From an uncultured virus (IMG/VR IMGVR_UViG_3300025769_000089) (taxonomy: Duplodnaviria > Heunggongvirae > Uroviricota > Caudoviricetes): a stretch of DNA of 64,000 nt. A program made the position numbers and the translations under genes. The stretch lies in the IMG/VR virus record IMGVR_UViG_3300025769_000089, one strand, 5' to 3'. Shown here one piece after another: positions 5,141 to 59,091 of this stretch. The first letter of the stretch is position 1; the number at the start of each line of letters is the position of its first letter. The notes below the pieces were generated by a model. That model worked only from the letters and a program-made list of their open reading frames with translations. It did not search any database and was not told the origin of the DNA.

Positions 5141-5472
5141 GAATCGACATAGAAGATATACAAGACCACGAAGACCCATACTGGTATCAGAATCTCAGAG
5201 GAATGCTTGGCATGACCGACCAGATTATGCGACTCTATGGGCACGACGAAGAAGCATTCAAGAAGCGTATTGCTGAGTTCATGTGGCGGGTTGTCCAAAG
5301 CAATCTATCCGCTAACACCAAACCAAGACATGACAATGAGGTTGAGCACTGTGGGACATTTCCTAAAGACAGTGGTTCACCGGGTATCAGCCATTTGATT
5401 GCCGATGCTTATCCACGCTCAACATCACGGACAAAGTGGTTCGCTAAACAACGCCAATCTGACCAAGAGTAG
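5137..5472 (+). CDS. Hypothetical protein
   Basis: 111-aa ORF; 3' end overlaps the convergent gene. Confidence 0.6.
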   Translation: MRIDIEDIQDHEDPYWYQNLRGMLGMTDQIMRLYGHDEEAFKKRIAEFMWRVVQSNLSANTKPRHDNEVEHCGTFPKDSGSPGISHLIADAYPRSTSRTKWFAKQRQSDQE

Positions 5473-6256
5473 ATTTAACATTATCTTCTTGGTCTAAAAG
5501 CGAGTCAAATAGTAAATCTTCTTGTGCTCTACTCATCGGCATTTCTGATTCTAAAATTGGTTCAATGAATTGCTCAAACGGTAACTCATCTATTCTTCTA
5601 GCGAAGGACTCTCTTTGTTCCTCTGGTAATTGATAATCAATACCGAATCTACGAGGGACCTTTCTGCCTCCCATGGCCAAGAGGAACCCTGCCAAGTCTT
5701 TTTCTGGTGATGGGTTCGCAGGTCCGTAAAACATTGGGTCCATCATTACAGCCCTTCCTTGTTGTGAAGGGTCATCCATTATTTCACTCACTGGCAATCC
5801 TCTCTGAGGAGTTGTTTGCATCCAATTAGCAGGTTTAATATCCGAAAGACCGAGTGCTTCTAACAGTTCACCTCCCGGTGAATCATAAAGTGCTTGGGCT
5901 AGTTGTTTGCCTCTCATTGCCCCGGCTCTTTTGGTGCCCTCATATTGTAAGGGTTGACCTCGAACTTGTTGTGAGAGGACAGGTATTCTTTGGTTGAACC
6001 TTGCTTGGGTATCCATGGGTAATTCCATGGTCTGTGCGATTGGATTTTGTGATACAAACAAATCCGGTCTTTCCGCAGCCAAACGGTTGAGATAATACAT
6101 ATCGGGGAGAGTAAATACTCCCCCGACTTTGGTGACATCCGGGTCACCTTCTCTGCCAAACACTTGCTGATTCATCCCTTCATCAAGAAGGTAACCCTCC
6201 GAGGGTTGAAAGACGGCTTTGAGCAACAACCATGCTTGCTCAAAGGCACCCGTCAT
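5444..6256 (-). CDS. Protein-kinase-like fold protein with AWxxLK leader
   Basis: LDEGMNQQVF (Gly-loop-like), VTKV (Lys), QQVRGQPL (hinge), SDIKPANW (catalytic loop DxKxxN), VMMDP (metal-binding Asp). Confidence 0.65.
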   Translation of the reverse strand: MTGAFEQAWLLLKAVFQPSEGYLLDEGMNQQVFGREGDPDVTKVGGVFTLPDMYYLNRLAAERPDLFVSQNPIAQTMELPMDTQARFNQRIPVLSQQVRGQPLQYEGTKRAGAMRGKQLAQALYDSPGGELLEALGLSDIKPANWMQTTPQRGLPVSEIMDDPSQQGRAVMMDPMFYGPANPSPEKDLAGFLLAMGGRKVPRRFGIDYQLPEEQRESFARRIDELPFEQFIEPILESEMPMSRAQEDLLFDSLLDQEDNVKSTLGQIGVV

Positions 6257-6314
6257 AATATTCCGACTGAGCCGTTTGGCTTAGTATTTGTGCTTTGGTT
6301 TCGGCCACCAAAGT

Positions 6315-6340
6315 ACTTCTTTTATAAAGGCCCTAAGAAG
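6315..6340 (+). promoter_or_regulatory. Conserved viral promoter element with TATA box (TTTATAAA), copy 1
   Basis: ACTTCTTTTATAAAGGCCCTAAGAAG, 24/26 identical to 13087-13112; intergenic. Confidence 0.75.
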
Positions 6341-6408
6341 ATATATGGCACCTTTCGGAAAAAACCAGCCGAATAAATAAGAAAAATAATAAACAGAAAA
6401 CAAGAGGA

Positions 6409-7887: not shown

Positions 7888-7912
7888 ACATCTAGGTAGA
7901 ACAGTTGGAGGA

Positions 7913-13082: not shown

Positions 13083-13086
13083 TTTG

Positions 13087-13112: not shown

Positions 13113-13127
13113 GTATGGTGTGATTCT

Positions 13128-14054: not shown

Positions 14055-14056
14055 AT

Positions 14057-32224: not shown

Positions 32225-32988
32225 GCGGTTTGCTCACCTCCGAAATTTAACTGCGTTTGGAAAGGGTCTTGCGGTTGCTGAAAAGGAGTAGGTTGCATGT
32301 ATTGAGTCATCTGTTGATTATAGTTATCCATCGCTTGTTGATACGCTTCTTTTCCTCCACTAAGAAATTGCCTTACCCTAGAAGGGGGTTGAGGCATAAC
32401 TTCGCCTCTTTGATTTACAATTGGGAATTGAGTAGGGGAAGCATCTTCTCTTTCTTCTACTCTAATACTCGCATGCCTTTGACTTTCAGCAGGGAAAGAC
32501 ATATTTCTGTCTATAATATCTTGCCGACCTTCTCTTGCTTGCATTGTATCTCCTAATACTTCATTTGACATTGGAACATTTGTTAAAAATTGCCTTGGTA
32601 TATTACCACCAAAATGTTCCGCCCCCGCATAATCATCCGGGTTCTTCAAACCATGACTTAAACCAATGTAGTTAGGGTGATTTTGGTCAAACGCCGCCTG
32701 TCTAATTCCTATCAACTTAGGTTGAGATACATTACTTGGCGTATTTCTTGCTTTACCGCTTCTTTGCACTGCATAAGTAGCCGATTCTGAAGGGTTAGTG
32801 CTTATAGTTGCATAATTAGGGTCAGGATTTTGCATACCTGCTCCGCCCATTATATCCATGAAGTTATCACCTGTGGTGCCATGATAAGCAACTACAGGGC
32901 CGTAAGGTGAAGGAAAAAAATCTTCATGCTCACCAAGCGTAGTCTGACGCTTTAGTATCATCCAAGCCTCATCCATCGGTGTCATGCG
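32201..32988. repeat. 27-bp direct repeat, 25/27 identical (32201-32227, 32962-32988)
   Basis: ccaagcctTCtccatcggtgtcatgcg vs ccaagcctCAtccatcggtgtcatgcg; encodes the leader MTPMxxAW. Confidence 0.95.
32221..32985 (-). CDS. AWxxLK-leader protein with ADP-ribosyltransferase-like domain and Q/P-rich tail
   Basis: MTPMDEAWMILK leader (ATG 32985); AYHGTT, ISTNPSESATYA, EHFGGNIPRQFL. Confidence 0.62.
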   Translation of the reverse strand: MTPMDEAWMILKRQTTLGEHEDFFPSPYGPVVAYHGTTGDNFMDIMGGAGMQNPDPNYATISTNPSESATYAVQRSGKARNTPSNVSQPKLIGIRQAAFDQNHPNYIGLSHGLKNPDDYAGAEHFGGNIPRQFLTNVPMSNEVLGDTMQAREGRQDIIDRNMSFPAESQRHASIRVEEREDASPTQFPIVNQRGEVMPQPPSRVRQFLSGGKEAYQQAMDNYNQQMTQYMQPTPFQQPQDPFQTQLNFGGEQTA

Positions 32989-38900: not shown

Positions 38901-41900
38901 TCCATGCCATCCTACTGCACCTACTGGTCTAGTTCGGTCTACAGCGTCAACAAATCCACTAAAGTGAACCTGACACATGTGGTCTCTTGAAGTGTTAGCC
39001 GAATCGTTATTGTGCCTATGAGTACCTGCCTTTGTCCACACATAAACCTCGTAAGTCCCTTCGGTGTCATAAGTAAATGCGCTACTGTCATCAGGGTTAA
39101 TTAAATTAGTAGAGCCTCCATCAGGACTCTTTGCTAATCTCAAAGTCAAGTTAGGTGAAGAATATGATGTACTTATGTAAGGAGCATAATGGGCATCAGT
39201 GCCGTCGCTAACCCTCACCCACCCGTAATTTGGTAACTTGTCATAACTACCGTCTATAACTAAAGTAGCAGGAGTGCCTCCGCTTTCAGTAGTGTAAGAA
39301 ACAATATCAGCCTTAACCCAACCATATCTATCTTGCTTGTGGGCATTTTGCATAGAAGGCATGAATGTACCACCCATGGCCTTGAGTGGGTCTTTGCCGG
39401 GGAATGTGTTGATTGACGCACTAATAATTGTAGCCAACTCTTCTGCGTTTTGAACACGAGTTGCATCAACAATCACTATGTTTTCATTGACTACCTGATT
39501 AGTAGGACTACCGCCATAAACTGCTAAGTAAGCCTGTGCTAACAAACCACAAGGTCTGAATGCAGATACATTGTGAGCCGCACCGCTACCAGTATCTAGT
39601 CTTACCCCTAGAGGGTGAGCAGGGTTTTTACTTACATGGTTGTCTAAGAAATGACCGCCCGGATGATATCCGCCATCCATGTGCCACACGACAGCAGATT
39701 TCCTTGTGCTCAAATGACTAGAACTACCTACTGCATTACTACTTATGTCACTAAATACATGGTTAAATGGATGATAATGCTTAGGTAAGTTAGCAGTGGT
39801 GGCTACACTACCGTCGTAATAGAAAGCCTTAGTGTTAACTTGATTGTAGTTTTTAGTGGCACTTGCATCTTCTGATGGAAAACCTTTGGTAGGTTGCCAG
39901 TTCATGACATAATTAAACCCAGTCTCATTGTTTTTCTGGAAGAAAGTAGTCATAGGTAAGTGAGCCTCAGCGCTACCTCTGTTGAAACCGCTGTGTTCAG
40001 TTAAGTCACCATTAGCCAATTGGTTAGGTAGGAATGTATCTTTAGTAGCATCGCTGTTGAAGTGAATAGGAACTGCGCTGTAACCGTTACCCAGTGTGAC
40101 TATACGAGAGCCCTGTGGTTCATGCGCCGCTGTATTGTGCGGGAAAGCCTGACCGGGTCCAAATATCATGTAGGTGGTATGGTCTGTAGTATCTCCTGTT
40201 GAACTATATCTGGCGTGAGGATGAGCAAACCTCAAAACAATAGGGCTAGGAATGTTTGCGTTGACGGTATTCGTTCCGTCGGTGTAATCTATTCCTGTGG
40301 CTTTATTATTAGCAGTCTTTGTCATATCGAATGTCAACAGAGCATCTTGATTGAAGAAAGGTGGATTATTCTGCCCTCGATGTTGGTCAAGGTAAGGTGT
40401 ACCGGGGAACATTGCCAACATAGCATTAGTGTCTAACAATGCGTAAGAGCCAGCCACTTCTCCTATATTCTGCATACCTGCGCTACCTGTCGGTCCAGAA
40501 GAATACGGATGCGTGTAGAACTCACTGTAATCGTTTTGAGTTCCATCGTTGATATCTACAACAGCACCACTAAATCCACCACCGAAGTACAACGGCACCC
40601 AGTGGTCAGGGCTGTCTCTACCGCCACGGAAATAAAGGAAAGGGCTGGCTTTCTTACTACCTGCTCTTCTAACGCCATCTATTTCTTTACCATATCCGTT
40701 GCTACTGTAAGACTTGAATATGACATCATGATTTGTAGGAGAAAAGTCTGCCGACTTAGCAATTAGGTTTACATGAGTAACGCTATCTGAACCCGGTTTA
40801 CTTCTAACCTCCGCCCAATCAGTCGTACTATACCAAATCAAAAACGGTTGGCCCCAACTGTTCGCATCGTTACTTGCTAATTTACCAAACAAAGCCCAAG
40901 ACTCATTACTAGCAGCATGAATCTCATTAGCAGTGATATTGTGTATTTCGAGACAAGGAGAATCTACTCTTGGAATAATATGGTCACCTGCTACATCAGT
41001 GAAGTTTTCCCCTCTGAGATTTCTTTGCCAAGTAGTAATATCGACCATGTTGTTTTGACTGTCAACTAATATAGGAGTAGCGGTGTTAGCATTAGAGCCT
41101 CGGTATTTAGTAGTGATATGTAGCACAGTGCTAGGGATGTAGCCGATGTCTAATCTTGTACCTGCATCTATTTCACCTGTGCTCAGACCGCCAGTATGTT
41201 TACTGGATACAACTGCATCGGTAGAAGCACCTTCCAACAACCCCCAGTCTTTGCTTCTTGTCGCCTCGAATAATTTACTCAAAGCCACCTTCCTGTCTGC
41301 TCTTGTATGAATTCTAATAGCGGTAGGACTTACTCCCCATTCACCGAAAGTATGCCCGTCTGGTGCGAACATGTCCGTACAATCAAAACTCGTAACATCC
41401 AACCCTTCTAATCCTGAATCAGGCATATTGATGGCGTATTCGACTGCTGCGGCAATCACTTCGTCAGTCAGTAAAGAAGTAAAATTGAGTCTAGGGCTCA
41501 TGAACCAATCACCGTTGGTATGGCTACTAGAGCCACCAATAACTCCAAAGAACTTGTGAGTACCACTGTAATCGTTATGTGTTCTACTAGTATAGTAGAA
41601 GTTTAGGCCTTGAACGCCACTTTGTGTAGAAAGTTGGAACATACCGCTTTCTGGGAAGCCAAGATAACCTAGTAAGTCTGGATGAGTTTGCATTACCGCT
41701 GGTGCACTTGTGTCGTAAGGGGCATCGAGCACTACAGTCATCGTGCCACTTGAGTAAGTTGTAGCAACTTTCACTCCGACGATTGGAGCAGGGTAATTGT
41801 TCCAAAGATTACCTTTTAATTTCTTAACAGTTCCACCAGTTTTTTCTCCGCATACTTCACCAGTACCCACCATGTGCCTACCGATAGTAAATCCACCCTG

Positions 41901-44900
41901 ACCTACATCTCTGTCATCAAAATGTATGATAACTTCTTCATCAAGTGTAGGAGGTAAGTATGTATTATCATTGGCAAAACTTTGGCCAAACTGTCTGTAA
42001 ACCATTCTGATTGTGTGGTTGTCTCCTCGGTGGTCGACAAACCTAAAGCCGTAAAGTGGATTGTTACCTATGTTTTCTTTCTTCATATCTGCTTTTGGAA
42101 TATAGCCGTCGTTACTACCATCAGTAGTGACTGTCATTGCATCTGATACATTTGACGGATTACCGTATTTAGATAGGAAATGATTTTGGGTACCGTCGTT
42201 ATCAAAGCCCCACTTACTTACATCAGGTGCCCAACCGGGTACACCTGCTTGAGTCAAACCACCAAAGTTAATTCTAGCCTTGGCTCTTGTACCTATCCTG
42301 AGTCCGTCTACTAAAGTAGAAGCAGGGCTCTTGGTTTCAAAAGACTCGTTGAGTACCGTATTACTATTCCTTCCGCTGACAACTTCTACATTTGCAGATA
42401 CTAATGCACCTGCGCTATCGGTTCTATCCGGTCCAAAATTCAAGTTGTTCAAGAATGGGTCACTAGGATTCTCTGGAGGTAAGTGCTCTTTCAGTGTCGT
42501 TATAGGCGCAAACGGTCTACCAAATCTGTTGATAGGCATAGGCGCAGGGTGCATATTTTCTCCGGTCATCTCGTCAGGCTGGCACCAATAGTTTCTAAAA
42601 CGCCCACCGTGACCTATCAAGAACTGCGGTCTGTAAGGACTCTGTGCCTTACTGCTATCTAGCCAAGTACAGAAATTGCGACCAGCAGCACCCGGAATAG
42701 TAGAGTGTATTACTATAGAAAAGCCCGGATTATCTTCTGAGTCAAGAACAACTCTTCCAAGATGGGCACGAACATATCCCATGTGAGTACCACGGTCATG
42801 GCTTGAAAACGCCTTACTTGGGTCCCAGAAAGGTGCAGGGTCGTGTGTTGAAGCAGTAGCAGCAAAGTCAGCATGAAGATGTGTGGCTGCTGGGTCAATG
42901 TTAGTGCTGTAAGCGTTTGATTTAGGTCCGGGGCTAGACAAGTCAAACTTAGAACTGTCACCTAAGAACTGGTCGTTTGGCCTACGAGAATGTGTTTTAC
43001 CATTCCTTGCACCTGCTTGATTGATTAGTCTGACTACTTCTCTAGCAGCCGATTCTATATTGGTCACACCATCTTTGAGTGCAACTTCTCCTAAATCTAC
43101 ACTAAGTCTTCTGACGAAATCCATATCAGTCCATTGGTCAAGATACTGCAATCTTGCTTCGGTGTGTGAAGTTAAGTCTAATACCGAGTTCCTAATACCT
43201 TTCATGGCTAAGAAAGCAGGTATGACTCTAGTACCGTCTGGAGTATCAAAGAAAGTAGAGGATTCTCTACTAGTATCGTCAATTACTTGATGCTGGACCA
43301 GTGCTTCATTTGCTGACGCTACTGCTGGATTTGTTCTACTGCTGTAACTGTCTTTGTCTATATCTGCTAACCCACCGACATTATGTTCCGATATTGCACC
43401 AGAGTAACTTTCATTCCAATCAGATGCGTGGGCGTAACTTGACTCAATAAAATCAGATTTTGTAGTAGTATTCATTCTCTTGTTTTGACTAGGGAAACCA
43501 GCCGCAACATCTAATTGAGTACCGGAATATTCCGATGTATTCTTAACTACACCTCCCTTAAAACTGTCTTCTTCGCTAATTCTGGCAGCGGCGGGACTTG
43601 ACTGAACCTGCATATGTAAATCTTGGAATGCAATAAATTCACGGTCATGTCCTACATCATAAAGTAATATTCTAACAAAACTATCTGTACACTGGTAAGG
43701 GTCTAGGTAAGCAACAACTGGTGCAGTTATCGAAGACCCTACAACTTCAAGGTAGTTTAGTTCAATGGTTTTGTTGATATGCTGTACTAAATTCTGAGCC
43801 GTTTCTATACAACTATTTCCGATGAGGAAGTTTTCCAATGGAATACTATCTCTTGGATTAGCATCTACTTCTCCTACTCCGCCGTTAAAGCCTTTCCAAA
43901 CCTCTGCTTCATTGAGCGTTCCTCTACTCTTACAGAACAAACCTTCAACTGCGTGAGGATTGGTATAGTGCATATTCATCCATATTGTATCGCCCTGCCT
44001 AAGTCCACCCGGACAGTAAGGATGTGCCCAAGCCCTGTTTAGGAATGTCTCCTTTACCTTTGGCCAAGTGCTTGCAGAAGTGGCGTACAAGTCCTCAACA
44101 TATATTTCGTCACCTGCCGAAGGAGTAAAGCCAGTGTCAGGACTGGTAATAGTCAGTGTGTTTCCTGACCTATTATTGTAAAATCCTCTCTTTACATTCC
44201 CACTAGAGTCTACCCAAGCAACTCTAAAATTGTAATCGCTGTCAGGACTCTTGATAGGGAAAAGACTAGCATCGTCTAGTTTTATAGAAGTAGCAGGACT
44301 TCCGACAACCAAAACCGCTTTCGCTCTAGGTCGCTTGCTGATAATCTTTGGTAAATGGGGGTTGGTCGAAGGACCAGCCCTTAACTCGATAGCACTGACA
44401 TACTGCTTCATTCCGTAGTCAGCGTTGCCACCTTGTGTTGTAACATTGGAACGGTCATAGTAAAACGACCTTCTTCTTTCGTAACCGGCACTAATCAAAC
44501 TTGGATTGTCAGCAATACTGTTGTAATTCATATCCTGATAACCCGGAGCAGGAGTAATGTGCGCCCCAACTCTGATGTCTCGCAGGAAGTTTTTACTGAA
44601 TGCGTGGTCGTCACCCGAATCGACTACGGTAAGATAATGGTTAGAGGTGTCTCTAGCGCTGTAAGTAAACCATTCTCCGTTAGCCAAAAATGCTCTTCGG
44701 TATCTAGCCTGACCACCTAAATTAGCAACTTCTGTAGGAGGCGCTGTTGGTATAGGGAAAATATTAGCATCTTCGACATATACTCGATAGTTAGCCGAAT
44801 CGTAAGGTCTGGTTACCTTGGTACCACTACGGTGCGTACCTCTTTGGATAGTGTAAGAAAACGGACCAAAAATCTCAGGGTCTTGAGGAGAGATAGCATC

Positions 44901-47900
44901 TGCTCTTCTACCGACTGGATTAGGGTTCCAAGAATGCGCTGTATGAGTAGCGTCTATGTGCAACTTCATACTGTTATCAGGACCGGGGAAAATACCCTTG
45001 TCTGGGTTGTCGAAGAAGAACTCCTCGAATAGAGGAATCTCGACAAGCGCACGAGTGCTTGCGTACTGACTACCTAATTGATAGTCGTGCTGGACTGTGT
45101 CTAGGCTCTGGAACAATCTGTCGTTGATTGTTGTCCCATCATTACACATTGACTCTTCACTAAACTTGTCGTCGACATGTAATACACTAGTCTCATCTAT
45201 TCCAGTAGCAGTGACCCAAGCGTTGAATGAATCTGCTTCTGAGCCATCTGCTAGTACAAATGTACCTGAACCTACGAGCCCAGTGCTGTTAGTAAATGTA
45301 AAAAGACTGCCTGTTTTACTGGTGTACGCTGCACTAGCAAACTGCTTTTGTTCTCCTTGGTTACCTGATAATTCAAGGTAAACTCTTCCTGTAGCAGGGA
45401 AACAATAAGTTCCCCAAGATTGTAAATCGTCAGCATTGTTGTTCAAAGGTAACACTGATATCTGCCTCTTTGTACCTATGCTGATGGTAGCGTTGACTTT
45501 GGCTTGACAATCTCTACGAGTGTTCCAAGCCAATCTGCTGAGTGGGGCTGGGTCCCAAGTCTCTTTGGTGTTTATAGCACCTTGACCGCCACCGCCAAGA
45601 GTCATTGTCACTACTGGAGCGCCCGGCATAATTTCTTTGACAATGTGGGAATCTGGGCTGGCCGAACCTTTTACACTAACAGTCGAGGATGCTATATCGC
45701 TTATCAGGCCATGCGCTCTGAGTATGGTGTTGCCATCAGTGTCGTCTCCAAAAGAAAGCACCCTTGCTCTCGACATAAGGTGTTCAATACTAATGACATT
45801 ACCCGAACCTGCATCAGTCACTACTTTTGATAATTGAGCAAAACGGTTCCTATCACAAGGCTGTATGACTAAACTGGTAACATTATTTCTTGACTTATGT
45901 TCTATGATATCAAAATACTCATGTACGATTGTACTTTGATTAGTACTACCTCTACCTGCTGATTGAGGCTCTATGAACAACTCATCATCATCGACAACCG
46001 CAGCGCTAGTTCCTGCACCTATAGTAATACTATTGGTAGTGACGGCTGTAACTGTACCTAGATTTGTTCCGTCTGCTTTGTAAATGATGTCGTCTACTGC
46101 AACTAATTGATTAGCAGTTCCTCCATCAACTGACATAGCACCGCTAGTAGAACTAGCATAACCGCCTGAGTTATTTATTTTCAAACCTATACGGTTTCTT
46201 CTACCATTAGAAGGGTCTCTGAACTTAACGCCAGCGACTTCTGAAAAATCATTTGAGCCGACCAAATTAGCCTTCACAAGTACTTTGTGGAAAGTAGAAG
46301 AGCGAGATGCTAGTTCAGACCTAGCCACTCTTATTGCTTGAGGAGTAGTTTGAGGGCTGTCAGTGCTGGTGTTAGGTAAATAATTAGTCGGACAAAGGCT
46401 GAGGTCTAGTTGGTCTTCACCTACATTACCTTCTGAGTCTTCACCCTCTAAGTCACCGTCATTGAAACCAAACATGTCAGGAGTATCGAAAGTAACCAAT
46501 CCTCCCGGCGCAACTATACCTAATGGCCTGACTGCAATTGAATCTCTTATCAAATCTATAATACGAGTAGAGCCAGTAACAACCGTACTTACATCAGGTA
46601 AGGTTTTACTTACTAACAACTTAGGAGAGTTATCTGCCATTTTGACTATAGCATTAGTGACAGCAGCGGCGTTGAAACTACTATTGTTAGGAGTTGCTGA
46701 AAATACAATTGTCTTTGCAGTGTGATTTATTTTAGCAGTTTGGTTAGTAACCGAGGAGAAAGGGCTGTGGCCGCCAATAGATATCTTATGAGCAGATATA
46801 ACAGCACCGTCTATTCCGAAAGATTTGACACTCTGCAAAGTAAGGGTAGCAGTAGAAATATTGGCAGTCAGCCTAGATGTAGCGCCGACATTGAAATGCT
46901 CACCTGTTCTATCAATGGCGTTGTAATGAATCTGTACAAACGGCGCATAGTCATAATCTTCTAACTCAGGTAAGATTAGTGTCGCTATCCTACTTTCTAT
47001 AGAAGGAATGACTGACTTGATGTTCGTACTAGAATCTGTAGAAGATATCGATTTAAGTAAGAAAGGCTCTGTATCAAATTCAGGCCCTCCAAGCGCTAGT
47101 AAACCTCTCTTAGAATCATCTATATCTGCCATGCCATTTTCTACAAATGTAGATATTCTTGAAGAAGATACTACATCTTTCAAAGCCATTGGTCCATGTT
47201 CGTCGAAACTGGACACGATTGAATTTACAGGAATAATATCTTTGATATTCCCAAACTGGGGGATGAATGTAGCACTTACAACATCACTACCAGCATCCAA
47301 CTTCTTTTCCACTAAATGTGATTCAGTAGGCGGCAATGCTCCCATAAACGGATGACTGCTAACATGATTGAGAATATGTCTACCTGTATGACCTATCAAG
47401 AAGTCTTGGCCCATGTTTGTAGTACTGGCAGAGAACTGATTGTACTCATGAGAGTCTATGGCCATGCTCATAGAGAAAACAATACCATGATTTTCAAAGT
47501 CACTTTCATCAATTATAACTTGCCCTTGCCTTTGTGAAAACTGGGTACCGCTACCTTGCGGTTGGAATACATTACCATTTCCGCCATCTACTATACAGTC
47601 GCCTGTAATTACTACGAACTCACCTGCATCGTGAGCCATCAGTAGCCCTCTTCGACCATTACTAGAAGCAGCGAAATCAAGATGGATAGATTCGACTACT
47701 ATGTTACCAGTACTAGTTTCTATAGAAATTAATCTAACTCTTTCAGGGGCTTTATTGGTAGGCTTACCCGTCTTTATATCATAGCCTAAAGGATTTATCA
47801 ATAGGTTGTAAGGCACCTTTGGAATGGATATGTCACTAGTAGAAGTCGCTGCATATTTTTTAATGGAGTAATTACCTTGATTTGGAACTTGGGTATTGAT

Positions 47901-48767
47901 AGTAAAGTTGACAAAATTTAACTCGCTTTGTCCGGTCAACTCTTCTATTAAGGTCGCTGCTGCTGTAGAACCTATAGAAATTGTAGATTGACTGGTGCTT
48001 GCTGTCAAAGCAGGAGTTTCTACTCTCGTGGCAATAGGATTAATTGGCTCTTCAAATCGCCACAAACCAAGAGTACTATCGCTTTTTATTGGAGCGAAGT
48101 CACTTCGACCTGATGCTTTTGCGCCTGCTGACAGATGTATAGTCTCAAGCGTTCCTCTGAAATCTCCACCTCTACCGCCTAGGAACATCTGGCTTTGTTG
48201 AGGTACTAATTGATGCTCTTCTTCTAATGTCTGTTGAACTAACAGGTCGCCATTAACATGCATGCTCAATACTTTTCTATCAAATGTAACAGTGACATTG
48301 AGTAGTTCTCTTGTGCCGTCAGTAAAGGCACTGACATCGTTACTGTTCTCATCTGAGCCTAGATTAGAGCCTGTGATTACTGAATTGACTGACGGGAATA
48401 GAACACCATCCCAGTAGGCCAAATCGCCATTTGCTTTGTTGACAGGTTTGGCGCTAGTCAAAGTGTATACTGAGTCTCTACCAGTGTTCTTGTTCTGTAA
48501 TCTGATTTCAAAAGTAGCAGGTGCAGGGCTACTTGGTGCGCCTACGCTCAGCCTCATTACATTGTCTTGCTCAAATATTGTACCGCCACAATCGGGTACG
48601 AACCATGTTTCCAAAGTAAATGAATTCATTGTAGTCGGCAACCGCTTGCGCTCAACAGTTTGTTTGCCGTGTAAGTTAGTGTTGTTAGTCGGTACGAGAA
48701 CGCTGTCGCTGATACCGTTGAATTTCATACCATATCCTGCATTTACTAGTAAACTCATATCATACAC
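32991..48767 (-). CDS. Giant (5258 aa) virion tail/adhesion protein with N-terminal LamG/ConA-like domain
   Basis: Uninterrupted 15.8-kb ORF; SFTLETWF...VTFD...HVNG...LGG...FRGTLE...GLWRFEE LamG pattern; located in tail block. Confidence 0.8.
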   Translation of the reverse strand: MYDMSLLVNAGYGMKFNGISDSVLVPTNNTNLHGKQTVERKRLPTTMNSFTLETWFVPDCGGTIFEQDNVMRLSVGAPSSPAPATFEIRLQNKNTGRDSVYTLTSAKPVNKANGDLAYWDGVLFPSVNSVITGSNLGSDENSNDVSAFTDGTRELLNVTVTFDRKVLSMHVNGDLLVQQTLEEEHQLVPQQSQMFLGGRGGDFRGTLETIHLSAGAKASGRSDFAPIKSDSTLGLWRFEEPINPIATRVETPALTASTSQSTISIGSTAAATLIEELTGQSELNFVNFTINTQVPNQGNYSIKKYAATSTSDISIPKVPYNLLINPLGYDIKTGKPTNKAPERVRLISIETSTGNIVVESIHLDFAASSNGRRGLLMAHDAGEFVVITGDCIVDGGNGNVFQPQGSGTQFSQRQGQVIIDESDFENHGIVFSMSMAIDSHEYNQFSASTTNMGQDFLIGHTGRHILNHVSSHPFMGALPPTESHLVEKKLDAGSDVVSATFIPQFGNIKDIIPVNSIVSSFDEHGPMALKDVVSSSRISTFVENGMADIDDSKRGLLALGGPEFDTEPFLLKSISSTDSSTNIKSVIPSIESRIATLILPELEDYDYAPFVQIHYNAIDRTGEHFNVGATSRLTANISTATLTLQSVKSFGIDGAVISAHKISIGGHSPFSSVTNQTAKINHTAKTIVFSATPNNSSFNAAAVTNAIVKMADNSPKLLVSKTLPDVSTVVTGSTRIIDLIRDSIAVRPLGIVAPGGLVTFDTPDMFGFNDGDLEGEDSEGNVGEDQLDLSLCPTNYLPNTSTDSPQTTPQAIRVARSELASRSSTFHKVLVKANLVGSNDFSEVAGVKFRDPSNGRRNRIGLKINNSGGYASSTSGAMSVDGGTANQLVAVDDIIYKADGTNLGTVTAVTTNSITIGAGTSAAVVDDDELFIEPQSAGRGSTNQSTIVHEYFDIIEHKSRNNVTSLVIQPCDRNRFAQLSKVVTDAGSGNVISIEHLMSRARVLSFGDDTDGNTILRAHGLISDIASSTVSVKGSASPDSHIVKEIMPGAPVVTMTLGGGGQGAINTKETWDPAPLSRLAWNTRRDCQAKVNATISIGTKRQISVLPLNNNADDLQSWGTYCFPATGRVYLELSGNQGEQKQFASAAYTSKTGSLFTFTNSTGLVGSGTFVLADGSEADSFNAWVTATGIDETSVLHVDDKFSEESMCNDGTTINDRLFQSLDTVQHDYQLGSQYASTRALVEIPLFEEFFFDNPDKGIFPGPDNSMKLHIDATHTAHSWNPNPVGRRADAISPQDPEIFGPFSYTIQRGTHRSGTKVTRPYDSANYRVYVEDANIFPIPTAPPTEVANLGGQARYRRAFLANGEWFTYSARDTSNHYLTVVDSGDDHAFSKNFLRDIRVGAHITPAPGYQDMNYNSIADNPSLISAGYERRRSFYYDRSNVTTQGGNADYGMKQYVSAIELRAGPSTNPHLPKIISKRPRAKAVLVVGSPATSIKLDDASLFPIKSPDSDYNFRVAWVDSSGNVKRGFYNNRSGNTLTITSPDTGFTPSAGDEIYVEDLYATSASTWPKVKETFLNRAWAHPYCPGGLRQGDTIWMNMHYTNPHAVEGLFCKSRGTLNEAEVWKGFNGGVGEVDANPRDSIPLENFLIGNSCIETAQNLVQHINKTIELNYLEVVGSSITAPVVAYLDPYQCTDSFVRILLYDVGHDREFIAFQDLHMQVQSSPAAARISEEDSFKGGVVKNTSEYSGTQLDVAAGFPSQNKRMNTTTKSDFIESSYAHASDWNESYSGAISEHNVGGLADIDKDSYSSRTNPAVASANEALVQHQVIDDTSRESSTFFDTPDGTRVIPAFLAMKGIRNSVLDLTSHTEARLQYLDQWTDMDFVRRLSVDLGEVALKDGVTNIESAAREVVRLINQAGARNGKTHSRRPNDQFLGDSSKFDLSSPGPKSNAYSTNIDPAATHLHADFAATASTHDPAPFWDPSKAFSSHDRGTHMGYVRAHLGRVVLDSEDNPGFSIVIHSTIPGAAGRNFCTWLDSSKAQSPYRPQFLIGHGGRFRNYWCQPDEMTGENMHPAPMPINRFGRPFAPITTLKEHLPPENPSDPFLNNLNFGPDRTDSAGALVSANVEVVSGRNSNTVLNESFETKSPASTLVDGLRIGTRAKARINFGGLTQAGVPGWAPDVSKWGFDNDGTQNHFLSKYGNPSNVSDAMTVTTDGSNDGYIPKADMKKENIGNNPLYGFRFVDHRGDNHTIRMVYRQFGQSFANDNTYLPPTLDEEVIIHFDDRDVGQGGFTIGRHMVGTGEVCGEKTGGTVKKLKGNLWNNYPAPIVGVKVATTYSSGTMTVVLDAPYDTSAPAVMQTHPDLLGYLGFPESGMFQLSTQSGVQGLNFYYTSRTHNDYSGTHKFFGVIGGSSSHTNGDWFMSPRLNFTSLLTDEVIAAAVEYAINMPDSGLEGLDVTSFDCTDMFAPDGHTFGEWGVSPTAIRIHTRADRKVALSKLFEATRSKDWGLLEGASTDAVVSSKHTGGLSTGEIDAGTRLDIGYIPSTVLHITTKYRGSNANTATPILVDSQNNMVDITTWQRNLRGENFTDVAGDHIIPRVDSPCLEIHNITANEIHAASNESWALFGKLASNDANSWGQPFLIWYSTTDWAEVRSKPGSDSVTHVNLIAKSADFSPTNHDVIFKSYSSNGYGKEIDGVRRAGSKKASPFLYFRGGRDSPDHWVPLYFGGGFSGAVVDINDGTQNDYSEFYTHPYSSGPTGSAGMQNIGEVAGSYALLDTNAMLAMFPGTPYLDQHRGQNNPPFFNQDALLTFDMTKTANNKATGIDYTDGTNTVNANIPSPIVLRFAHPHARYSSTGDTTDHTTYMIFGPGQAFPHNTAAHEPQGSRIVTLGNGYSAVPIHFNSDATKDTFLPNQLANGDLTEHSGFNRGSAEAHLPMTTFFQKNNETGFNYVMNWQPTKGFPSEDASATKNYNQVNTKAFYYDGSVATTANLPKHYHPFNHVFSDISSNAVGSSSHLSTRKSAVVWHMDGGYHPGGHFLDNHVSKNPAHPLGVRLDTGSGAAHNVSAFRPCGLLAQAYLAVYGGSPTNQVVNENIVIVDATRVQNAEELATIISASINTFPGKDPLKAMGGTFMPSMQNAHKQDRYGWVKADIVSYTTESGGTPATLVIDGSYDKLPNYGWVRVSDGTDAHYAPYISTSYSSPNLTLRLAKSPDGGSTNLINPDDSSAFTYDTEGTYEVYVWTKAGTHRHNNDSANTSRDHMCQVHFSGFVDAVDRTRPVGAVGWHGERYSYFNSLDLGSNTYAAGLGAWHPFLGFNPYGAAETCLTGSAPVTVTGETAANTFTSDYCVTGLASRHLIVISHESELPLIAKADRNGTNCTGDLLIANQTDRHDGVGTIAWDTTKIHNKDRYVGPATAGPHVEVQIHSSQFVPVVAEDYPAGNALPADNKWHRAFQSGDMVRANACRYPTGDLFWDESLLPSNTLHESQGTYATECVGITGQDHYLDSAANQGHTGLFGYYNKRSAARNFLPEHVVWKRMDGGSLTMPAVNARGLGMIPWVKRKDSGVTDYKLVGEKILGNVRFSFETTNAAMFPIIQAQELGHPQLAEQHPLEVRNALLIPNEHLQFDSLQVVDDTGQEHRIEGGSPFGTVIMDFRHISDREIEGLAPALAGAGVNPNLKIRLPNPDEVPGNIVIRSGFDRIQGYQNETIGSGGLQHPAQNITQIRQMFDHEYAGPRLWPTWENNGWEHLSQDSDDISLAQANSRLKFPASNKEGWHDHTDNNPLKSSFEPHDRSLYFHVTRMGTTMTHRYDLDEKEYRGISGTDLQVNLTPEASVWLDTSQLSGGRYFLRVYNPATDKGVIASYTGTGSKKFTGVVYSPEFEQFITDNDDGTNNLRVVPSYYVPAGTTRMFAARRLRDHSEYSGASPDMKKIDWHDMYTNMQTSADDFRIPSTPHNYISSPRMTPMPIPRMGHHYVTPSMALMPGHYAHPAYQRIYDLHTACKSSSYSPFDSDLIGTIEASRLGLDSEDVTAKGFTRDPLLWFSAASAAYGPSDIHGGAFTLLTETKLKYEGYGIAASVGTNAGDINAAGGHTLVLEAAATYTMNNHFPDPLEVGAYQIIIQPNVFKQQLQGFHQNHSNAVKAPSEAGAKVTELTGQQVNTVIAIEKNVNTRGAYALILAEAMMADVRGCEVILNEVILDIDPDPGSQFASLPPLALYNPLGVQESTSPSFTRRSLPYRPGMFVSSTPGRTLTIPWWSILHKDGATASGANKFKHLEWYKPDNYYELCRAGYGAVGAQITLAGYPTSFLDIYEPHKRVRSLNPHCVVMYGEVRSGEILVDNADLFPVYPYFGEVLEYTRDGKRYTASYTDVRGTLATGSLGQPVAFDGVTEITAGFWANINTNEAIILKLSRPYDNDTSDALYLDSETSLLTRNLPQLANGSRDTNSLHPADAFLCMWHPNLGRPFTWYSDDSSRAIYTKAGAADTPVDQKPYNHVPEHFETIHYHDFNYVASKGPFALGMKWPAPPRDHDNDSGTALSHDGTVYTASEIDALTDGSGTLNHQGGTVGSNKYNFFGFWPGGSHGGGAVSRLESYGHSLMGWGSDTFGMDCETYQDSTGVATLSLPNDRNRCFGYRMAVRQLYNRPRWSPYIRGWLEVADSNAMLGYYNGPLIQQDSKTNGWDYVGSVSGQVDVDFDALYVGILERITQVSSLLGQDQLGRQVRYSDGRRMTGPFGCPVRTARNASTVTRFFPNDEEGQGIEELSQAHRHYMVDWWGNTRGEDVRRFPVRGFGLRPSWDPEDAYKDTNVGHRPAASGLFGGDGNDRQSGNANTVNNDGTNMGTVDWFNPASMLRVGDRGDGRGCRWPTVFNESLLMAVSENHDATGLVLSSNTAEPVYGQGLVRPSNEILQAGEIERGISDRVDLDSDDGLLKPSAHVGEAIETVNADTRGAEPVSRDDVRLGLDVDTIAELNDGVSREYIVMSTEAHSLHTDREVGQRTNIRGAYNFGSRTLKDLDMTALNWSAAPVTGVVKHSDAHAMWPLGGTYVIDWNKHAGNLDVTGWGKDGVTTSSNPYQDSNHQHPLKENLNHSDSNIQFLYRPAFGLDFKHSQMFRSYVALKGSSPQENSNFYRATAGGKYGMFTSDAPGARTGTPSNPPYAPVYTVDPATSTTVPVSQGPNIPGVDVTGYDKSDITSPVARMVMSENTLEHFRADASRRSIDDDEGDYSVQPRHSQTLHPKGSKEDASYNTGDHSGE

Positions 48768-56553: not shown

Positions 56554-57023
56554 GGTATCATCTCCGCTAGTATTACAACTTCTACTTGGAATGTATGTCT
56601 AAACAGTTTTTTGGTTCGGTCTGACAGGTCAGTACGAGTCTTGAGAACCATGCGGTCAAAGTTTGCCCCGTCGCCTTTTCTACTGTTGTGGATAACTCTT
56701 CTCATTTCGTTTTCCATCTTTCTTAGCCTAGAACGACCTCTTGATGTTCTCATGTCGACTGTGATATTGTAACGGGTGGTGACGAAGTTGTACATCAAAT
56801 CAGGTACTTCTTCGTTCTGGGCTGTCTCATAGCATAGAATGTAATCATGTCTTTGTAAATCAATACGCTTGCCCCTCTCAGGCGTTTCGTTGGCAATGTC
56901 TACAACTACAGGCTTTACATTGTCAGTATTGGCCCTGTTCCAACCCTTGTCGGTACCAGAGTCATAATTCGCTGCCAGTATGTCAATGACTGTCTCAAGA
57001 GGCTCTTTCCATGTAGCAACCAT
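56550..57023 (-). CDS. Putative tail terminator/completion protein
   Basis: 157 aa, immediately before tube gene. Confidence 0.55.
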   Translation of the reverse strand: MVATWKEPLETVIDILAANYDSGTDKGWNRANTDNVKPVVVDIANETPERGKRIDLQRHDYILCYETAQNEEVPDLMYNFVTTRYNITVDMRTSRGRSRLRKMENEMRRVIHNSRKGDGANFDRMVLKTRTDLSDRTKKLFRHTFQVEVVILAEMIP

Positions 57024-58630
57024 TACGAGAACACCACCACTTCTTTGTAGCGGGTTAACAGTTCTTCTGCTTCTTTTCTAAACAATTGAATCTTAGAACC
57101 CAAGTCAACATTCTGCGAGCCCTCCGGTATCAAGACGCTGCGGTCATCTGATAGTAACAAATCAGCCGCTACCATCTTAGTAGCAGCCTCTTCTATGGCC
57201 TTCTCAAGATACCTTTCGCCATAGATGTAAGATACCTTGACAGAGTTGTGTTCAAAGAAAGGATATGAATTGTTGAAATAAACTATTCCCATCTCAGCGT
57301 CTAGCCACCAGTCACGCAATCTCGCTTGGTCACCACTAGAGGAGCCGCCTTGTAAATCGAGTTGAAGCAAGTGCTGAGTAATAGTCCCGCTAGATTGCGC
57401 TGTCCCTACTACATTTGCACAGCCAGTAAAGGTAGTACTAGTCTTACCAGTGTAGCGAATTATATTTGTTCCATCTGTAAATACGCCAGCATGGGCAAAA
57501 CCCGCAGTGCTACCTACCGTTATTACACCATTTGCTCCCGAAGGGAAAGTACCTGTAAATGTCCCTGATGCGCCGGAAACTGTAGCAGTATTAGTAGTGA
57601 CTTGTGAAAAATTAATGTCAGCAGAATTACTGACTATGCTACAAACTTCACCTGCTTTAGTCTGTTTCATACTAGTGACTTTTAATTGACCGCTACCATA
57701 GTCAGCATTAGCGCTCGCAAAAAATTCTTGATGAACCCCTGCTGCGTTAGTGTTTGAACCTTCTGGATAAAAAGCGGGTTGGAATGTTAGTTGCGCCTTT
57801 TCTGCCCTGTCTTCTTTATTAATTAAATCAGCAAGGCTTTGTGCAGCACTAATTTTGTCAGTAGCAACTGACCACTTTGTACCAATTATTTGAACGCCAG
57901 AATCAGCCTCTAATGTTGCTGCACTACCATTACCGGGTGACATAACTATAAATTTCTCATCAAGTGCTCTAACATCATCAGGTAATTGTATACGAACTTC
58001 TGCACCACATATTTCTCTATAATCTTCACCTTGCCACATTTCTATTCTAAGCATCTGTTGGACATTTCTAAACAATAACGGAGTAGTACCAACATAGTCA
58101 GTAAAGTATCTACGCCTGTACGGTTTGTATGTATCGAAGTTTAGGTATTCTGCTGAGACTAGATAAGGTCTCCAAGCATTGTGAGTAATGTTGTCAATAC
58201 GGTCCTGTACTTCTTTGATTCTGGTTTCGACAGTAGACTTTTTCATACCACGAGTTTTACCATCAGTAAACGATGCTAAATTTTGCACATATCCGTTGTC
58301 TGTGGTTTCGTAAAGACCGGGATTTATCGCACCGATAAATGTTAACTTGACACCACTTGTTGTAGAAGTCACTGCTGTTATTGTTTTTTCTGCTCCTACT
58401 GGGTCAGCATCACTATAAATTAATATTTTATCATTGTAAGAAAAACCCACATTTCTGTAATCTCCGCCTGTCACAAACACTGCATTTGCTTCTGCGTTTG
58501 CAGACATCAAGACTGCTTCGCTAGGACCTATACCAAGCAGGTCTGCAACTTTTTGAGCAGTAGTGTAAACTATTGCATCAGGGTCGAAAGGCCGAGTCTC
58601 AGGCTCTCCGGGTGAAAATATAGCAGGCAT
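57023..58630 (-). CDS. Putative head-tail adaptor with large insertion
   Basis: YTTAQKVADLL...RIDNIT N-terminus and VSYIYG...IEEAATKMVA C-terminus are adaptor-like. Confidence 0.6.
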   Translation of the reverse strand: MPAIFSPGEPETRPFDPDAIVYTTAQKVADLLGIGPSEAVLMSANAEANAVFVTGGDYRNVGFSYNDKILIYSDADPVGAEKTITAVTSTTSGVKLTFIGAINPGLYETTDNGYVQNLASFTDGKTRGMKKSTVETRIKEVQDRIDNITHNAWRPYLVSAEYLNFDTYKPYRRRYFTDYVGTTPLLFRNVQQMLRIEMWQGEDYREICGAEVRIQLPDDVRALDEKFIVMSPGNGSAATLEADSGVQIIGTKWSVATDKISAAQSLADLINKEDRAEKAQLTFQPAFYPEGSNTNAAGVHQEFFASANADYGSGQLKVTSMKQTKAGEVCSIVSNSADINFSQVTTNTATVSGASGTFTGTFPSGANGVITVGSTAGFAHAGVFTDGTNIIRYTGKTSTTFTGCANVVGTAQSSGTITQHLLQLDLQGGSSSGDQARLRDWWLDAEMGIVYFNNSYPFFEHNSVKVSYIYGERYLEKAIEEAATKMVAADLLLSDDRSVLIPEGSQNVDLGSKIQLFRKEAEELLTRYKEVVVFS

Positions 58631-59091
58631 TACTGTCCCCCTGCGGGATATTGTGCATAATGGTCTTGCATAGTGTAATCATTTTGAGGGTCTAGTGCGT
58701 TGTAATAACTGGCCTGTTCTATTTGTTCCTGCAATGTTGGAGGAGGTAAACCTTGCTGTTCACGAGTGAACCTACTAGGTTCACCTCTAAAGTTCCTTCG
58801 AAGAGGGGAATAGAATTGAGCGCCCGGTTGATACTTGAAACCGCCCCCTGCTCCATATATGCCCATTTCACGCAATATATCATTTACAGCATTGCGTTCA
58901 GCAAGTGTAGAAATCGTATCCCCTGCATCTAAGGCTCTATCATAACCTGTGGCAAGTCCTGCAAATGAACCGTCACCTTCCCTTAAATACGGGCGAGTTC
59001 TTTTAGCCTCTCTAACAAATTTAGCGGGACTTTGCCTCTGAAAGTCTTGTATTGATTTCAACAAATCCCACGCTGCATCAAAAGCCTTCAT
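58630..59091 (-). CDS. AWxxLK-leader protein of unknown function
   Basis: MKAFDAAWDLLKS leader; Q/P-rich C-terminus. Confidence 0.7.
   Translation of the reverse strand: MKAFDAAWDLLKSIQDFQRQSPAKFVREAKRTRPYLREGDGSFAGLATGYDRALDAGDTISTLAERNAVNDILREMGIYGAGGGFKYQPGAQFYSPLRRNFRGEPSRFTREQQGLPPPTLQEQIEQASYYNALDPQNDYTMQDHYAQYPAGGQ

Follow-up and report, generated by a model that had tools for sequence, protein, structure and literature searches.

Four open reading frames (ORFs) in the genome of an uncultured virus begin with nearly the same dozen residues and then diverge completely, which raises the question of what such a peptide does on proteins that are otherwise unrelated. The DNA analysed (64,000 nucleotides, in the following referred to as the window) is that of a magrovirus and encodes an HK97-type capsid protein and an S78 prohead protease as well as an archaeal replication module. 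Magroviruses are viruses of ocean archaea, and in surface waters few archaeal viruses are as abundant. The structural arm of the window (28309-64000) is on the minus strand and the replication arm on the plus strand; a Cpn60 chaperonin is also encoded. The four genes that carry the peptide (the tag) are the following:

5444..6256, minus strand: tagged gene 1, 270 aa; MTGAFEQAWLLLK followed by AV (leader nt 6218-6256); predicted kinase-like body; antisense in the replication arm
31742..32224, minus strand: tagged gene 2, 160 aa; MTPMEKAWAVLK followed by MP (leader nt 32189-32224); second gene of slot 2
32221..32985, minus strand: tagged gene 3, 254 aa; MTPMDEAWMILK followed by RQ (leader nt 32950-32985); predicted ADP-ribosyltransferase (ART)-fold body; first gene of slot 2, right after the giant ORF
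58630..59091, minus strand: tagged gene 4, 153 aa; MKAFDAAWDLLK followed by SI (leader nt 59056-59091); occupant of slot 1

The shared peptide and the proteins behind it

All four ORFs start with M-x-[PA]-[FM]-[DE]-x-A-W-x-x-L-K, as an earlier note on this DNA had described, and the similarity ends, as also claimed there, at the Lys: the best pairwise BLASTP match between the bodies has an E value of 0.69, and the four are thus not full-length homologues of one family. The coordinates likewise bear out that all four are on the minus strand, three of them within the structural arm and the fourth antisense within the replication arm, which is on the plus strand. Translated in all six frames, the window contains AW..LK four times, always at one of these N-termini, versus a mean of 0.39 in 100 base shuffles, so that the chance frequency considered in the note does not account for it. 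The degenerate DNA pattern for ATG plus leader has 4 matches versus 0.00 expected (100 dinucleotide shuffles), and a leader HMM finds at ≥16 bits only the four leaders.

The codons of the leader vary. Among the 118 distinct leaders listed from viral contigs the invariant Ala is encoded by four codons and the Lys by two, and the Leu position shows seven codons, one of which (TTC, 4 of 118) specifies Phe. It is therefore the protein rather than the DNA that is under selection. In AF2 models of two of the proteins the tag lies in a helix (residues 3–16 and 3–20, respectively) followed by a low-confidence linker, and the tag is therefore placed outside the fold of the body. The motif P/A-[FMI]-[DE]-x-A-[W, rarely M/F]-x-[LIV]-L-K is probably a portable amphipathic helix of approximately 10 residues and 2.5 turns, one face of which would be formed by the hydrophobic residues (i, i+3/4 and i+7).

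With respect to the bodies, the note had proposed one kinase-like and two ART-like proteins, of which the kinase-like and one ART-like assignment hold at the level of the fold and the second ART-like one is weak. The model of the 5444-6256 product (pLDDT 79.7, pTM 0.78; helix 3–16, low-confidence linker 13–20) is predicted to be protein-kinase-like at the fold level: the best Foldseek matches in the PDB are AceK, ROCK2, PRPK and RIO2 (E 3e-4 to 5e-3), and the six matches at E ≤ 0.001 are all kinases (AceK, ROCK2), with more kinases below, the TM-scores being low (near 0.3). There is no Pfam family and no PDB sequence match for this protein. Six homologues with the same leader were found, and G27, K43 and D139 are invariant in the alignment. 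The gene and a divergent replication-arm gene have in common a 152-nt intergenic region with a single TATA-like element.

The 32221-32985 product, for which an in-frame GTG is present at 32994, three codons upstream of the ATG, gave a moderate model (pLDDT 68.7, helix 3–20) with a predicted ADP-ribosyltransferase fold. A wide VIA-align search returned KptA/Tpt1 with Z 7.8, 6.2 and 5.1 (the first with an rmsd of 3.0 over 87 aligned residues), exotoxin A with Z 5.3, and cholix, diphtheria-toxin homologues and DarT; judged by entry title, a large majority of the best 40 matches are ART-fold chains. In a PDB profile search 23 of 23 matches were chains of the ART clan (E 0.04–1). Foldseek found nothing in the PDB at E ≤ 0.001, and Pfam PARP is absent from the protein itself and sub-threshold in its relatives (21.8–23.2 versus a cut-off of 26.7). 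A YHGT motif is present, the His of which is invariant in the family alignment. For the 31742-32224 body, a singleton in the BLAST clustering of the 111 bodies listed, an ART-like nature is weakly supported: hhalign against the ART-like family yielded E 0.009 with a probability of 4.5% over 38 columns, and Atlas feature matches of 0.90 to Arr-ms and Tox-ART-HYD1 clusters are leads only. The 58630-59091 product belongs to no Pfam or PHROG family, has two homologues in viral contigs, and has its best Atlas matches (0.86) in hypothetical viral clusters.

Position-independent use of the tag in magroviruses

In viral contigs the leader was found at no fewer than 129 loci and at the in-frame start of at least 123 ORFs. 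The distinct bodies listed (at least 107, together with the four of the window 111) fall into 63 BLAST clusters, which agrees with the earlier proposal of a portable tag on unrelated, interchangeable bodies at variable loci; the scan for diverse bodies suggested there thus returned many families. Magrovirus genes are present in the short flanks of 90 of the 129 loci listed. Five near-complete relatives have 7–12 pattern matches each, in total 47 versus 4 in the reversed-pattern control, and in two relatives HD_4 is above the Pfam cut-off in tagged bodies. Taken together with the ART and kinase-like folds, this gives the tagged bodies the appearance of enzymes that modify the host. A search of 596 Gb of cellular genomes gave 10 matches, of which the single genuine one is from a magrovirus-like contig. 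Nearly all ORFs with the leader have a magrovirus context, and the tag is specific to magroviruses. A description of it was not found in the literature searched.

The note had regarded the tag as a leader at N-termini, and this view is too narrow. In the 723 called genes of seven sequences a broader motif occurs 57 times (reversed sequences, 0; shuffles, mean 0.07), 34 copies being N-terminal, 17 internal and 6 C-terminal, and the tag is therefore position-independent. In six relatives it also joins the modules of polyproteins, occurs within a conserved basic protein and forms the end of some others. For example, one 1205-aa ORF contains eight copies, the last of them six residues before the stop codon; on the same contig (G005) a 360-aa ORF at its other end adjoins the 1205-aa ORF. 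Modules of these two ORFs align to the stand-alone tagged genes L037, L018 and L102 from residue 13–15 onward, and the matches to L078, L106 and L025 start deeper in the stand-alone protein. Some copies are found only 1–14 residues from a stop codon. Because of the polyprotein, internal and extreme C-terminal copies, where a cut behind the Lys would set next to nothing free, a docking helix fits better than a pure leader peptide.

The tagged genes of the structural arm occupy two slots, both flanked by conserved genes of this arm:

59136..59420, minus strand: conserved gene of 94 aa; borders slot 1 on its upstream side
57023..58630, minus strand: conserved gene of the structural arm, 535 aa; borders slot 1 on its downstream side
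32991..48767, minus strand: giant ORF of 5258 aa; upstream border of slot 2

Homologues of both slot 1 borders are present in five of six relatives, those of the 94-aa gene also at capsid protein (MCP) loci; the 535-aa protein matches phrog_17057 (E 1.4e-23). Slot 1 is part of the head-tail gene block. Of 46 related loci, 33 have nothing in this slot and four have a tagged gene there; the tagged genes are therefore accessory insertions. In six relatives the tagged genes are on the structural-arm strand with one exception (G005 5806-7251), and many are grouped at contig ends. The giant ORF has no Pfam family and no internal sequence repeats. Its C-terminal tail ...YNTGDHSGE is conserved, ends with SGE directly before a tagged gene, and is seen again at the end of some tagged proteins. 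At the C-termini of tagged proteins G-[DE] is in weak excess (14/72 versus 64/600, p 0.049).

Proposed docking to the procapsid and the alternatives

The structural arm also encodes a prohead protease and the major capsid protein:

62239..63654, minus strand: prohead protease (Peptidase_S78), S78 domain aa 30-188 plus a C-terminal region of ~280 aa
61057..62226, minus strand: HK97-fold major capsid protein (SU10_MCP); candidate receptor and shell for the putative cargo

Both are identified by Pfam, the protease with 44.3 bits (cut-off 21; in PHROG a head maturation protease) and the capsid protein with 40.4 bits (cut-off 24.1; phrog_24667, E 2e-56). The latter is 33% identical to the capsid proteins of HVTV-1/HCTV-1, and the identity among six magroviruses is 75–83%. 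The C-terminal region of the protease protein is probably scaffold-like. The protein is a candidate both for the enzyme processing the tag and for the receptor of the tag. In an alignment of six genomes ...ATFRILKED... is invariant where the protease domain ends, and the C-terminal MSWDEVHRLAGSV is conserved. ATFRILK, the sole likeness to the tag in this protein, is inside the Pfam S78 match and may have a purely structural role.

Our main reading, with a probability of roughly 0.5, is that the tag is a portable docking helix, possibly cut by the protease, by which accessory enzymes are brought to the capsid during its assembly, by analogy with the capsid-targeting sequence (CTS) of T4. The steps that we infer are capsid binding, cleavage and its exact position, presence in the virion and delivery to the host. 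Magroviruses would fit accessory proteins with the helix as their shared means of docking, be it at the N-terminus, at a module junction or at the C-terminus; the receptor would most likely be part of the procapsid, namely the protease protein with its scaffold region, the HK97-fold shell on its inner side or a different core protein; and the tagged enzymes (ART-fold, kinase-like, HD-domain, HTH and others) would be enclosed in the head and would enter the next host along with the viral DNA. The S78 protease may cut at or next to the tag, by which the polyprotein modules would be freed and the cargo let go by its receptor. The protease of phage HK97 is the type enzyme of S78. Cleavage after Lys has a precedent since, in the part of the literature cited, the HK97 capsid protein is cut at K103/S104 (PMC10275583). 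It should be noted, however, that cutting after Lys would be pointless in the copy located one residue before a stop codon. Somewhat less probable is the stricter version of a plug-and-play cargo system, in which one helix F-D-x-A-W-x-x-L-K both docks to the procapsid and marks the S78 cut, and more than 50 rapidly exchanged enzyme families are packed and injected. In HVTV-1, which has a related capsid protein and an annotated head maturation protease of its own, no copy of the tag was found, and the receptor would therefore not be general to this capsid lineage.

The leader HMM found the tag neither in the capsid protein of the window nor in its protease-scaffold protein, which speaks against docking to the capsid. 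This absence may be counted for a helix that docks to a hub outside the virion (host RNA polymerase, ribosome, PCNA or proteasome; viral Cpn60 or replication complex), the enzymes being made in the infected cell. N-terminal, internal, C-terminal and multi-copy use is indeed typical of short linear docking motifs, the F-x-x-x-W-x-x-L spacing is that of the p53 helix bound by MDM2, and the virus encodes a chaperonin. The promoter region that gene 5444-6256 has in common with a replication-arm gene would equally fit early expression, and many tagged genes are grouped at contig ends, where other phages often have their early genes. The tagged genes are, however, found between conserved structural-arm genes and, save the one exception, on that strand, and the use of the tag at polyprotein junctions suggests processing, which fits a head protease. 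That no cellular protein in the 596 Gb of genomes carries the tag argues against mimicry of a host motif, not against binding to a host hub. We consider a hub outside the virion to be unlikely.

More doubtful still is that the motif is solely a recognition site at which S78 or another protease cuts polyproteins and pro-proteins, with no role in addressing. Polyproteins with up to eight junction copies, stand-alone genes equivalent to single modules, cleavage after Lys by the HK97 protease, the G-[DE] excess and the position of the giant ORF tail would all be consistent with this. But 34 of the 57 copies are at the N-terminus of stand-alone genes, where a cut would remove just about 12 residues, others are almost at a stop codon, and the essential head proteins are without the motif. 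Also, a whole helical face is strictly conserved, which goes beyond the requirements of known prohead-protease sites: the sequence logos given for T4 and giant phages comprise approximately 3 residues (PMC5694885). That the shared stretch is a recombination boundary for cassette exchange or a translational feature is very improbable: the tagged genes do behave as cassettes, with variable slots, tandem arrays and start/stop codon overlaps at junctions (the start of 31742-32224 overlaps the stop of the upstream gene, ATGA), but synonymous codons are free at invariant residues, DNA identity is low with the peptide fixed, and the motif is in-frame inside long ORFs.

Known addressing systems and what the tag may mean

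The closest parallel to a docking helix for capsid cargo is phage T4, in which the prohead protease gp21 removes the CTS from the internal proteins. A 10-residue CTS is reported for IPI-III and Alt, Alt being processed at both ends (PMC9026906 section 2.6; PMC5694885). Going by the same sources, the likeness to the magrovirus tag consists in a terminal peptide of approximately 10 residues common to unrelated, fast-changing proteins, in an assemblin-type prohead protease, and in an ADP-ribosyltransferase among the tagged proteins, which in T4 is cargo; the propeptides at both ends of T4 Alt may be compared with some magrovirus proteins tagged at both ends (PMC9026906; PMC5694885). There is, however, no sequence likeness: the magrovirus tag ends with Leu-Lys and the T4 sequence with Glu. 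The former is also found inside polyproteins and at C-termini. Capsid protein and scaffold do not have it, in contrast to the T4 cut motif, which essential head proteins share. Finally, the magrovirus protease is of the S78 type and T4 gp21 of another, and the host is an archaeon.

In phage P1 the capsid targeting signal of DarB is within the first 30 residues, which suffice, and, as proposed here for magroviruses, an N-terminal signal takes an anti-defence enzyme, and also a foreign reporter, into the head; the sections cited describe this signal for a single protein, whereas the magrovirus motif is common to dozens of families (PMC9024508). The giant phages SPN3US, phiKZ and 201phi2-1 have, according to the data cited, many head-internal proteins that the prohead protease cuts at a short motif; a single protein has several such sites, and paralogues that have diverged keep conserved N-termini. 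The propeptides of these phages are, however, mostly longer than 100 residues with a three-residue A/S-x-E site, in contrast to the conserved helix of magroviruses (PMC5694885). Encapsulins are described as loading diverse cargo enzymes into an HK97-fold shell via a short terminal peptide (PMC8346489; PMC11866011). They are, however, cellular compartments without DNA, protease or delivery step, and their peptides have no sequence likeness to the magrovirus tag. Most encapsulin cargo peptides are located at the C-terminus and are not helical. VP1 of SH1/HHIV-2 shows that the virion of an archaeal virus can contain an anti-defence protein; SH1/HHIV-2 are non-tailed and use one large structural protein, and the text cited describes no shared address tag (bioRxiv 10.64898/2026.04.28.721311).

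In metagenomes the tag can serve as a search handle for accessory enzymes, and it is a candidate peptide with which foreign proteins might be loaded into particles of the HK97 fold. Should its docking partner be a host hub, the tag would indicate a new central target in the viral takeover of Poseidoniales. If, as we favour, it loads the capsid, it would explain approximately 8% of the magrovirus genes now called hypothetical and would extend T4-type addressing to archaeal viruses with another code and another protease family. The stricter plug-and-play version, if true, would give archaeal viruses their first addressing code of this kind, its arsenal of ARTs, kinase-like proteins, HD hydrolases and nucleases serving host takeover or anti-defence. 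Loading of the capsid would identify the injected host-takeover or anti-defence toolkit in the viruses of one highly abundant group of ocean archaea.

Occurrence of the tag in the window and beyond

Two arms make up the window, a plus-strand replication module (1 to about 28,000) and a minus-strand structural arm (28309–64000). The replication module also encodes an SNF2 helicase, an RFC-like AAA+ protein, a PD-(D/E)XK nuclease and an ERCC4 nuclease, and the structural arm a Laminin_G_3 virion protein. The individual features needed here are the following; tag (or leader) denotes the helix motif P/A-[FMI]-[DE]-x-A-[W, rarely M/F]-x-[LIV]-L-K, and body the protein after its Lys.

5444–6256, minus strand: tagged gene
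17598–19967, plus strand: family-B DNA polymerase
25668–27263, plus strand: Cpn60 chaperonin of the Cpn60/TCP-1 family (Pfam E 1e-129), conserved in all relatives
31742–32224, minus strand: tagged gene
32221–32985, minus strand: tagged gene
32991–48767, minus strand: giant ORF (5258 aa), conserved in all relatives
58630–59091, minus strand: tagged gene
61057–62226, minus strand: HK97/SU10-type capsid protein
62239–63654, minus strand: S78 prohead protease with a long C-terminal extension

The replication arm closes with two neighbouring small paralogous ORFs (27253–27417 and 27407–27592, plus strand; 54 and 61 aa) that carry Cys-x2-Cys motifs (MGR..C..CG..MKR.Y).

The four tagged ORFs named by the earlier note are present and start as quoted. 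AW..LK is found exactly four times in the six-frame translation of the window (mean after base shuffling 0.39), each time 6–8 residues past an ATG that lies 9–15 codons downstream of a stop. The degenerate DNA pattern "ATG, 1–2 codons, [FMI][DE]xAWxxLK" yields four matches at the same four places, versus 0.00 expected. Beyond the Lys, the four proteins are as unlike as had been claimed (best pairwise E 0.69), and a family of paralogues with related bodies is therefore rejected.

The comparison set beside the window consisted of the nearest record, G001 (a 29-kb fragment), and five relatives, G002–G006 (near-complete viral contigs of about 100 kb each), all collinear with the window. The capsid protein shares 33% identity with its counterparts in the haloarchaeal tailed viruses HVTV-1 and HCTV-1, a relation also reported for magroviruses in the text of PMC5434244. 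It aligns to the halovirus proteins only from their residue 74–75 or so (PHROG profile 74–456 of 457; the HVTV-1 gene begins 222 nt before the match) and thus lacks the halovirus N-terminal extension. Between portal and protease, HVTV-1 (L274, record 64229–72563) encodes, among others, a protein of 1313 aa carrying the annotation "zeta toxin" and another annotated "head assembly"; magroviruses have at this position a single protein of about 1,860–1,930 aa with no Pfam family above cut-off.

In a viral-contig collection the anchored leader pattern was found at at least 129 loci. The matches listed include 123 in-frame ORF starts that are distinct over the first 60 residues, of which 112 ORFs, at least 60 aa long and carrying AW..[LF]K within residues 1–16, were kept for clustering. 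Among the matches listed, 107 distinct bodies together with the window's four form 63 BLAST clusters (E ≤ 1e-4), the largest with 17, 7, 7 and 5 members, and 47 being singletons; manual reading puts about nine of the listed ORFs, spread over about eight clusters, down to chance, for example a DNA methylase and a gp10-like tail protein. Column counts of the leader reveal that positions left free in the pattern are conserved too, with P/A two residues ahead of the acidic one and L/V/I preceding the Leu. The expectation that the leader would recur at many N-termini before diverse bodies is thus borne out. Non-tagged magrovirus genes lie in the short flanks of 90 of the 129 loci listed, and HVTV-1, the sole halovirus record searched, gave no pattern match. 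With a stricter pattern, which has 101 matches within the 129 viral loci listed, 596 Gb of bacterial and archaeal genomes yielded 10 places, nine of them chance ORFs and one genuine, in a magrovirus-like contig. Mimicry of a host propeptide finds no support in these cellular genomes. Because of this near-absence from cellular genomes, the lack of a copy in HVTV-1 and the magrovirus flanks, the tag is a magrovirus feature and not taken from a cellular protein. It is not mentioned in the main text of the magrovirus literature searched: an N-terminal motif, a leader, a polyprotein or an ADP-ribosyltransferase (ART) appears nowhere in the text of PMC5434244, PMC11706807 and PMC10160649, and no title on such a tag was among the literature joining "magrovirus" with "N-terminal".

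Position of the tag within proteins

The strict motif AW..LK occurs 52 times in six frames of the seven sequences (window and G001–G006); by manual reading about 40 of these are N-terminal, 5 internal, 2 at the extreme C-terminus and 5 chance-like or ambiguous. A broader expression, which allows M or F for W as well as the one-residue-longer form AWSxL[LMI]K, finds 57 copies in 723 called genes (reversed proteins 0, shuffled mean 0.07). The leader had been described as an N-terminal tag. This holds for most copies (34 of 57), but 17 are internal and 6 C-terminal.

For example, contig G005 starts with an ORF of 1205 aa that carries eight copies of [TS]GEPMD[LI]A[WMF]RLLK between different modules, the last one six residues from the stop. 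For three of nine modules tested from this ORF and from an adjoining 360-aa ORF at the contig's other end, stand-alone tagged homologues were found; matches to the stand-alone genes L037, L018 and L102 start at residue 13–15, directly past the leader, and those to L078, L106 and L025 deeper, at residue 29–67. Two G006 proteins begin with a variant tag and have another copy near residue 210, and a family of proteins encoded at slot 1 (see below) ends either with ...SSFRDAWSVLKS-stop or with ...KSFDDAWSILK plus 14 residues. A C-terminal G-[DE] is marginally enriched on tagged proteins (14/72 versus 64/600 in a background that includes unverified ORFs, p 0.049).

Beyond the window, internal copies are also found in a basic low-complexity protein (MGRGSDTRMY[AS]PRSES..., 380–630 aa), encoded upstream of the terminase gene and conserved in all five relatives:

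G002 88685–90292
G003 12253–14139 (L168)
G004 about 102304–103443
G005 13974–15830
G006 75781–76935

Its homologues contain one to three internal copies of the one-residue-longer variant GEP[MI][DE]xAWSxL[LMI]K; in that of G004 the broader expression detected none. T4 gp22 is a core/scaffold-type protein that gets cut up, and by analogy the magrovirus protein might be a core or scaffold-like protein with the same fate.

Bodies and genomic slots

Searches of Pfam, PHROG and PDB sequences assigned none of the four window proteins to a family. The kinase-like body claimed for 5444–6256 holds at the level of fold in an AF2 model from family alignments (pLDDT 79.7), whose six Foldseek matches at E ≤ 0.001 are all kinases. 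Of the two ART-like bodies claimed, that of 32221–32985 stands: by VIA-align, residues 29–150 of a moderate AF2 model (pLDDT 68.7) match ART-fold proteins, with Z 7.8 to KptA/Tpt1, 5.3 to exotoxin A and 3.5 to a cyanophage pre-ejectosome chain, among many more. Foldseek against PDB found nothing at E ≤ 0.001 with this model, and a PDB search with the alignment of the ART-like family, in which the window protein is the first row, gave weak ART-clan matches (E 0.04–1). For 31742–32224 there are only weak ART hints (hhalign probability 4.5%, Atlas 0.90), and 58630–59091 is without family in the three sequence searches. Among tagged proteins of relatives, 14 of 80 have a Pfam match at E ≤ 0.01, two of these being chance pattern matches (DNA methylase, HK97-gp10-like protein); HD_4 is above the Pfam cut-off in two, and PARP, HTH_38, GNAT and ParB-like matches are below the cut-offs.

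The tagged genes are accessory cassettes in variable slots, as had been proposed. Slot 1 lies between the conserved genes of a 94-aa and a 535-aa protein in the structural arm, both of which are present in 46 of 80 capsid-gene loci. The gap is at most 65 nt in 33 of the 46, is 272–573 nt with one tagged ORF in four, and is filled by a 2.3–2.5-kb insert without tag motif in nine (L250, L251, L252, L256, L257, L260, L265, L268 and L269). In the window, G003, G004 and G006, slot 2, after the giant ORF, contains tagged genes of ART-like type, and in G002 an HD-domain gene. Other tagged genes are arranged in tandem close to the ends of contigs on the structural-arm strand, G005 5806–7251 being the sole strand exception among called tagged genes; 5444–6256 runs antisense within the replication arm and has a matching position in G001 and G002.

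A search for late promoters found as sole recurrent upstream element the 17-nt TTTATAAAGGYCCTAAG, which precedes two plus-strand genes and gives no information on timing. Its copies (6321–6337 and 13093–13109, plus strand) precede the genes at 6409 and 13128 by 72 and 19 nt, respectively, and the first falls within a 152-nt intergenic stretch that the divergent tagged gene 5444–6256 shares. The element, probably a TATA-box promoter, is confined to the window and G001, the window's closest relative.

The giant ORF is rich in Ser/Gly/Thr/Asn and has no Pfam family. Its homologues are 3702–5723 aa long in the five full-length relatives; the G001 copy ends at the contig edge (897 aa). A repeated receptor scaffold was rejected since self-BLAST found no internal repeats, a result silent on binding. 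The C-terminal tail ...YNTGDHSGE is conserved in five of seven sequences (GDHSTE in G005, diverged in G003). The same tail closes the stand-alone tagged protein L037 (...GDHSGE), and another such protein, L047, ends with ...TGYSGE.

Possible function of the tag

In both the kinase-like and the ART model the tag forms a helix, after which comes a linker modelled with low confidence. The conserved residues F/M, A-W and L (i, i+3/4, i+7) share one face of this short helix, with D/E and K flanking. Since the tag is found at either terminus and in multiple copies, a docking peptide fits better than a bare cleavage site; a role in processing only is unlikely. Processing at or near the tag in addition to docking is likely because of the polyprotein junctions, the S78 protease and the cut of HK97 after Lys (K103/S104, in the text of PMC10275583). 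The protease domain itself closes at aa 175–183 with ...GINPEATFRILKED..., which resembles the tag's tail, [AV][WFM]R[IL]LK. Its F-x-I-L-K-E-D core is invariant in six magrovirus proteases and its other positions vary little; it could serve for self-cleavage or release at the protease–scaffold boundary, or simply be the fold's final strand.

The likeliest target of docking would be the procapsid, the tagged proteins then being enclosed and delivered. To this reading, for which the analogy with the T4 capsid targeting sequence (CTS) and P1 DarB and the gene position speak, we give a probability of about 50%. A weakness of it is that the leader HMM found no tag copy in capsid and scaffold proteins. 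Docking to a hub outside the virion is a tentative alternative, the viral Cpn60 chaperonin being one possible partner for the shared helix. That the tag is a recombination or translation feature is most improbable: the invariant residues are encoded by many synonymous codons, which indicates selection on the peptide, and a DNA-level element is therefore rejected.

Likeness in sequence to any known targeting peptide was neither found nor expected. By function, if delivery with the virion is assumed, the closest system is the T4 CTS. It differs from the magrovirus tag, however, in its code and in the family of the protease, and the magrovirus tag is position-independent, is used in polyproteins and belongs to viruses of archaeal hosts.
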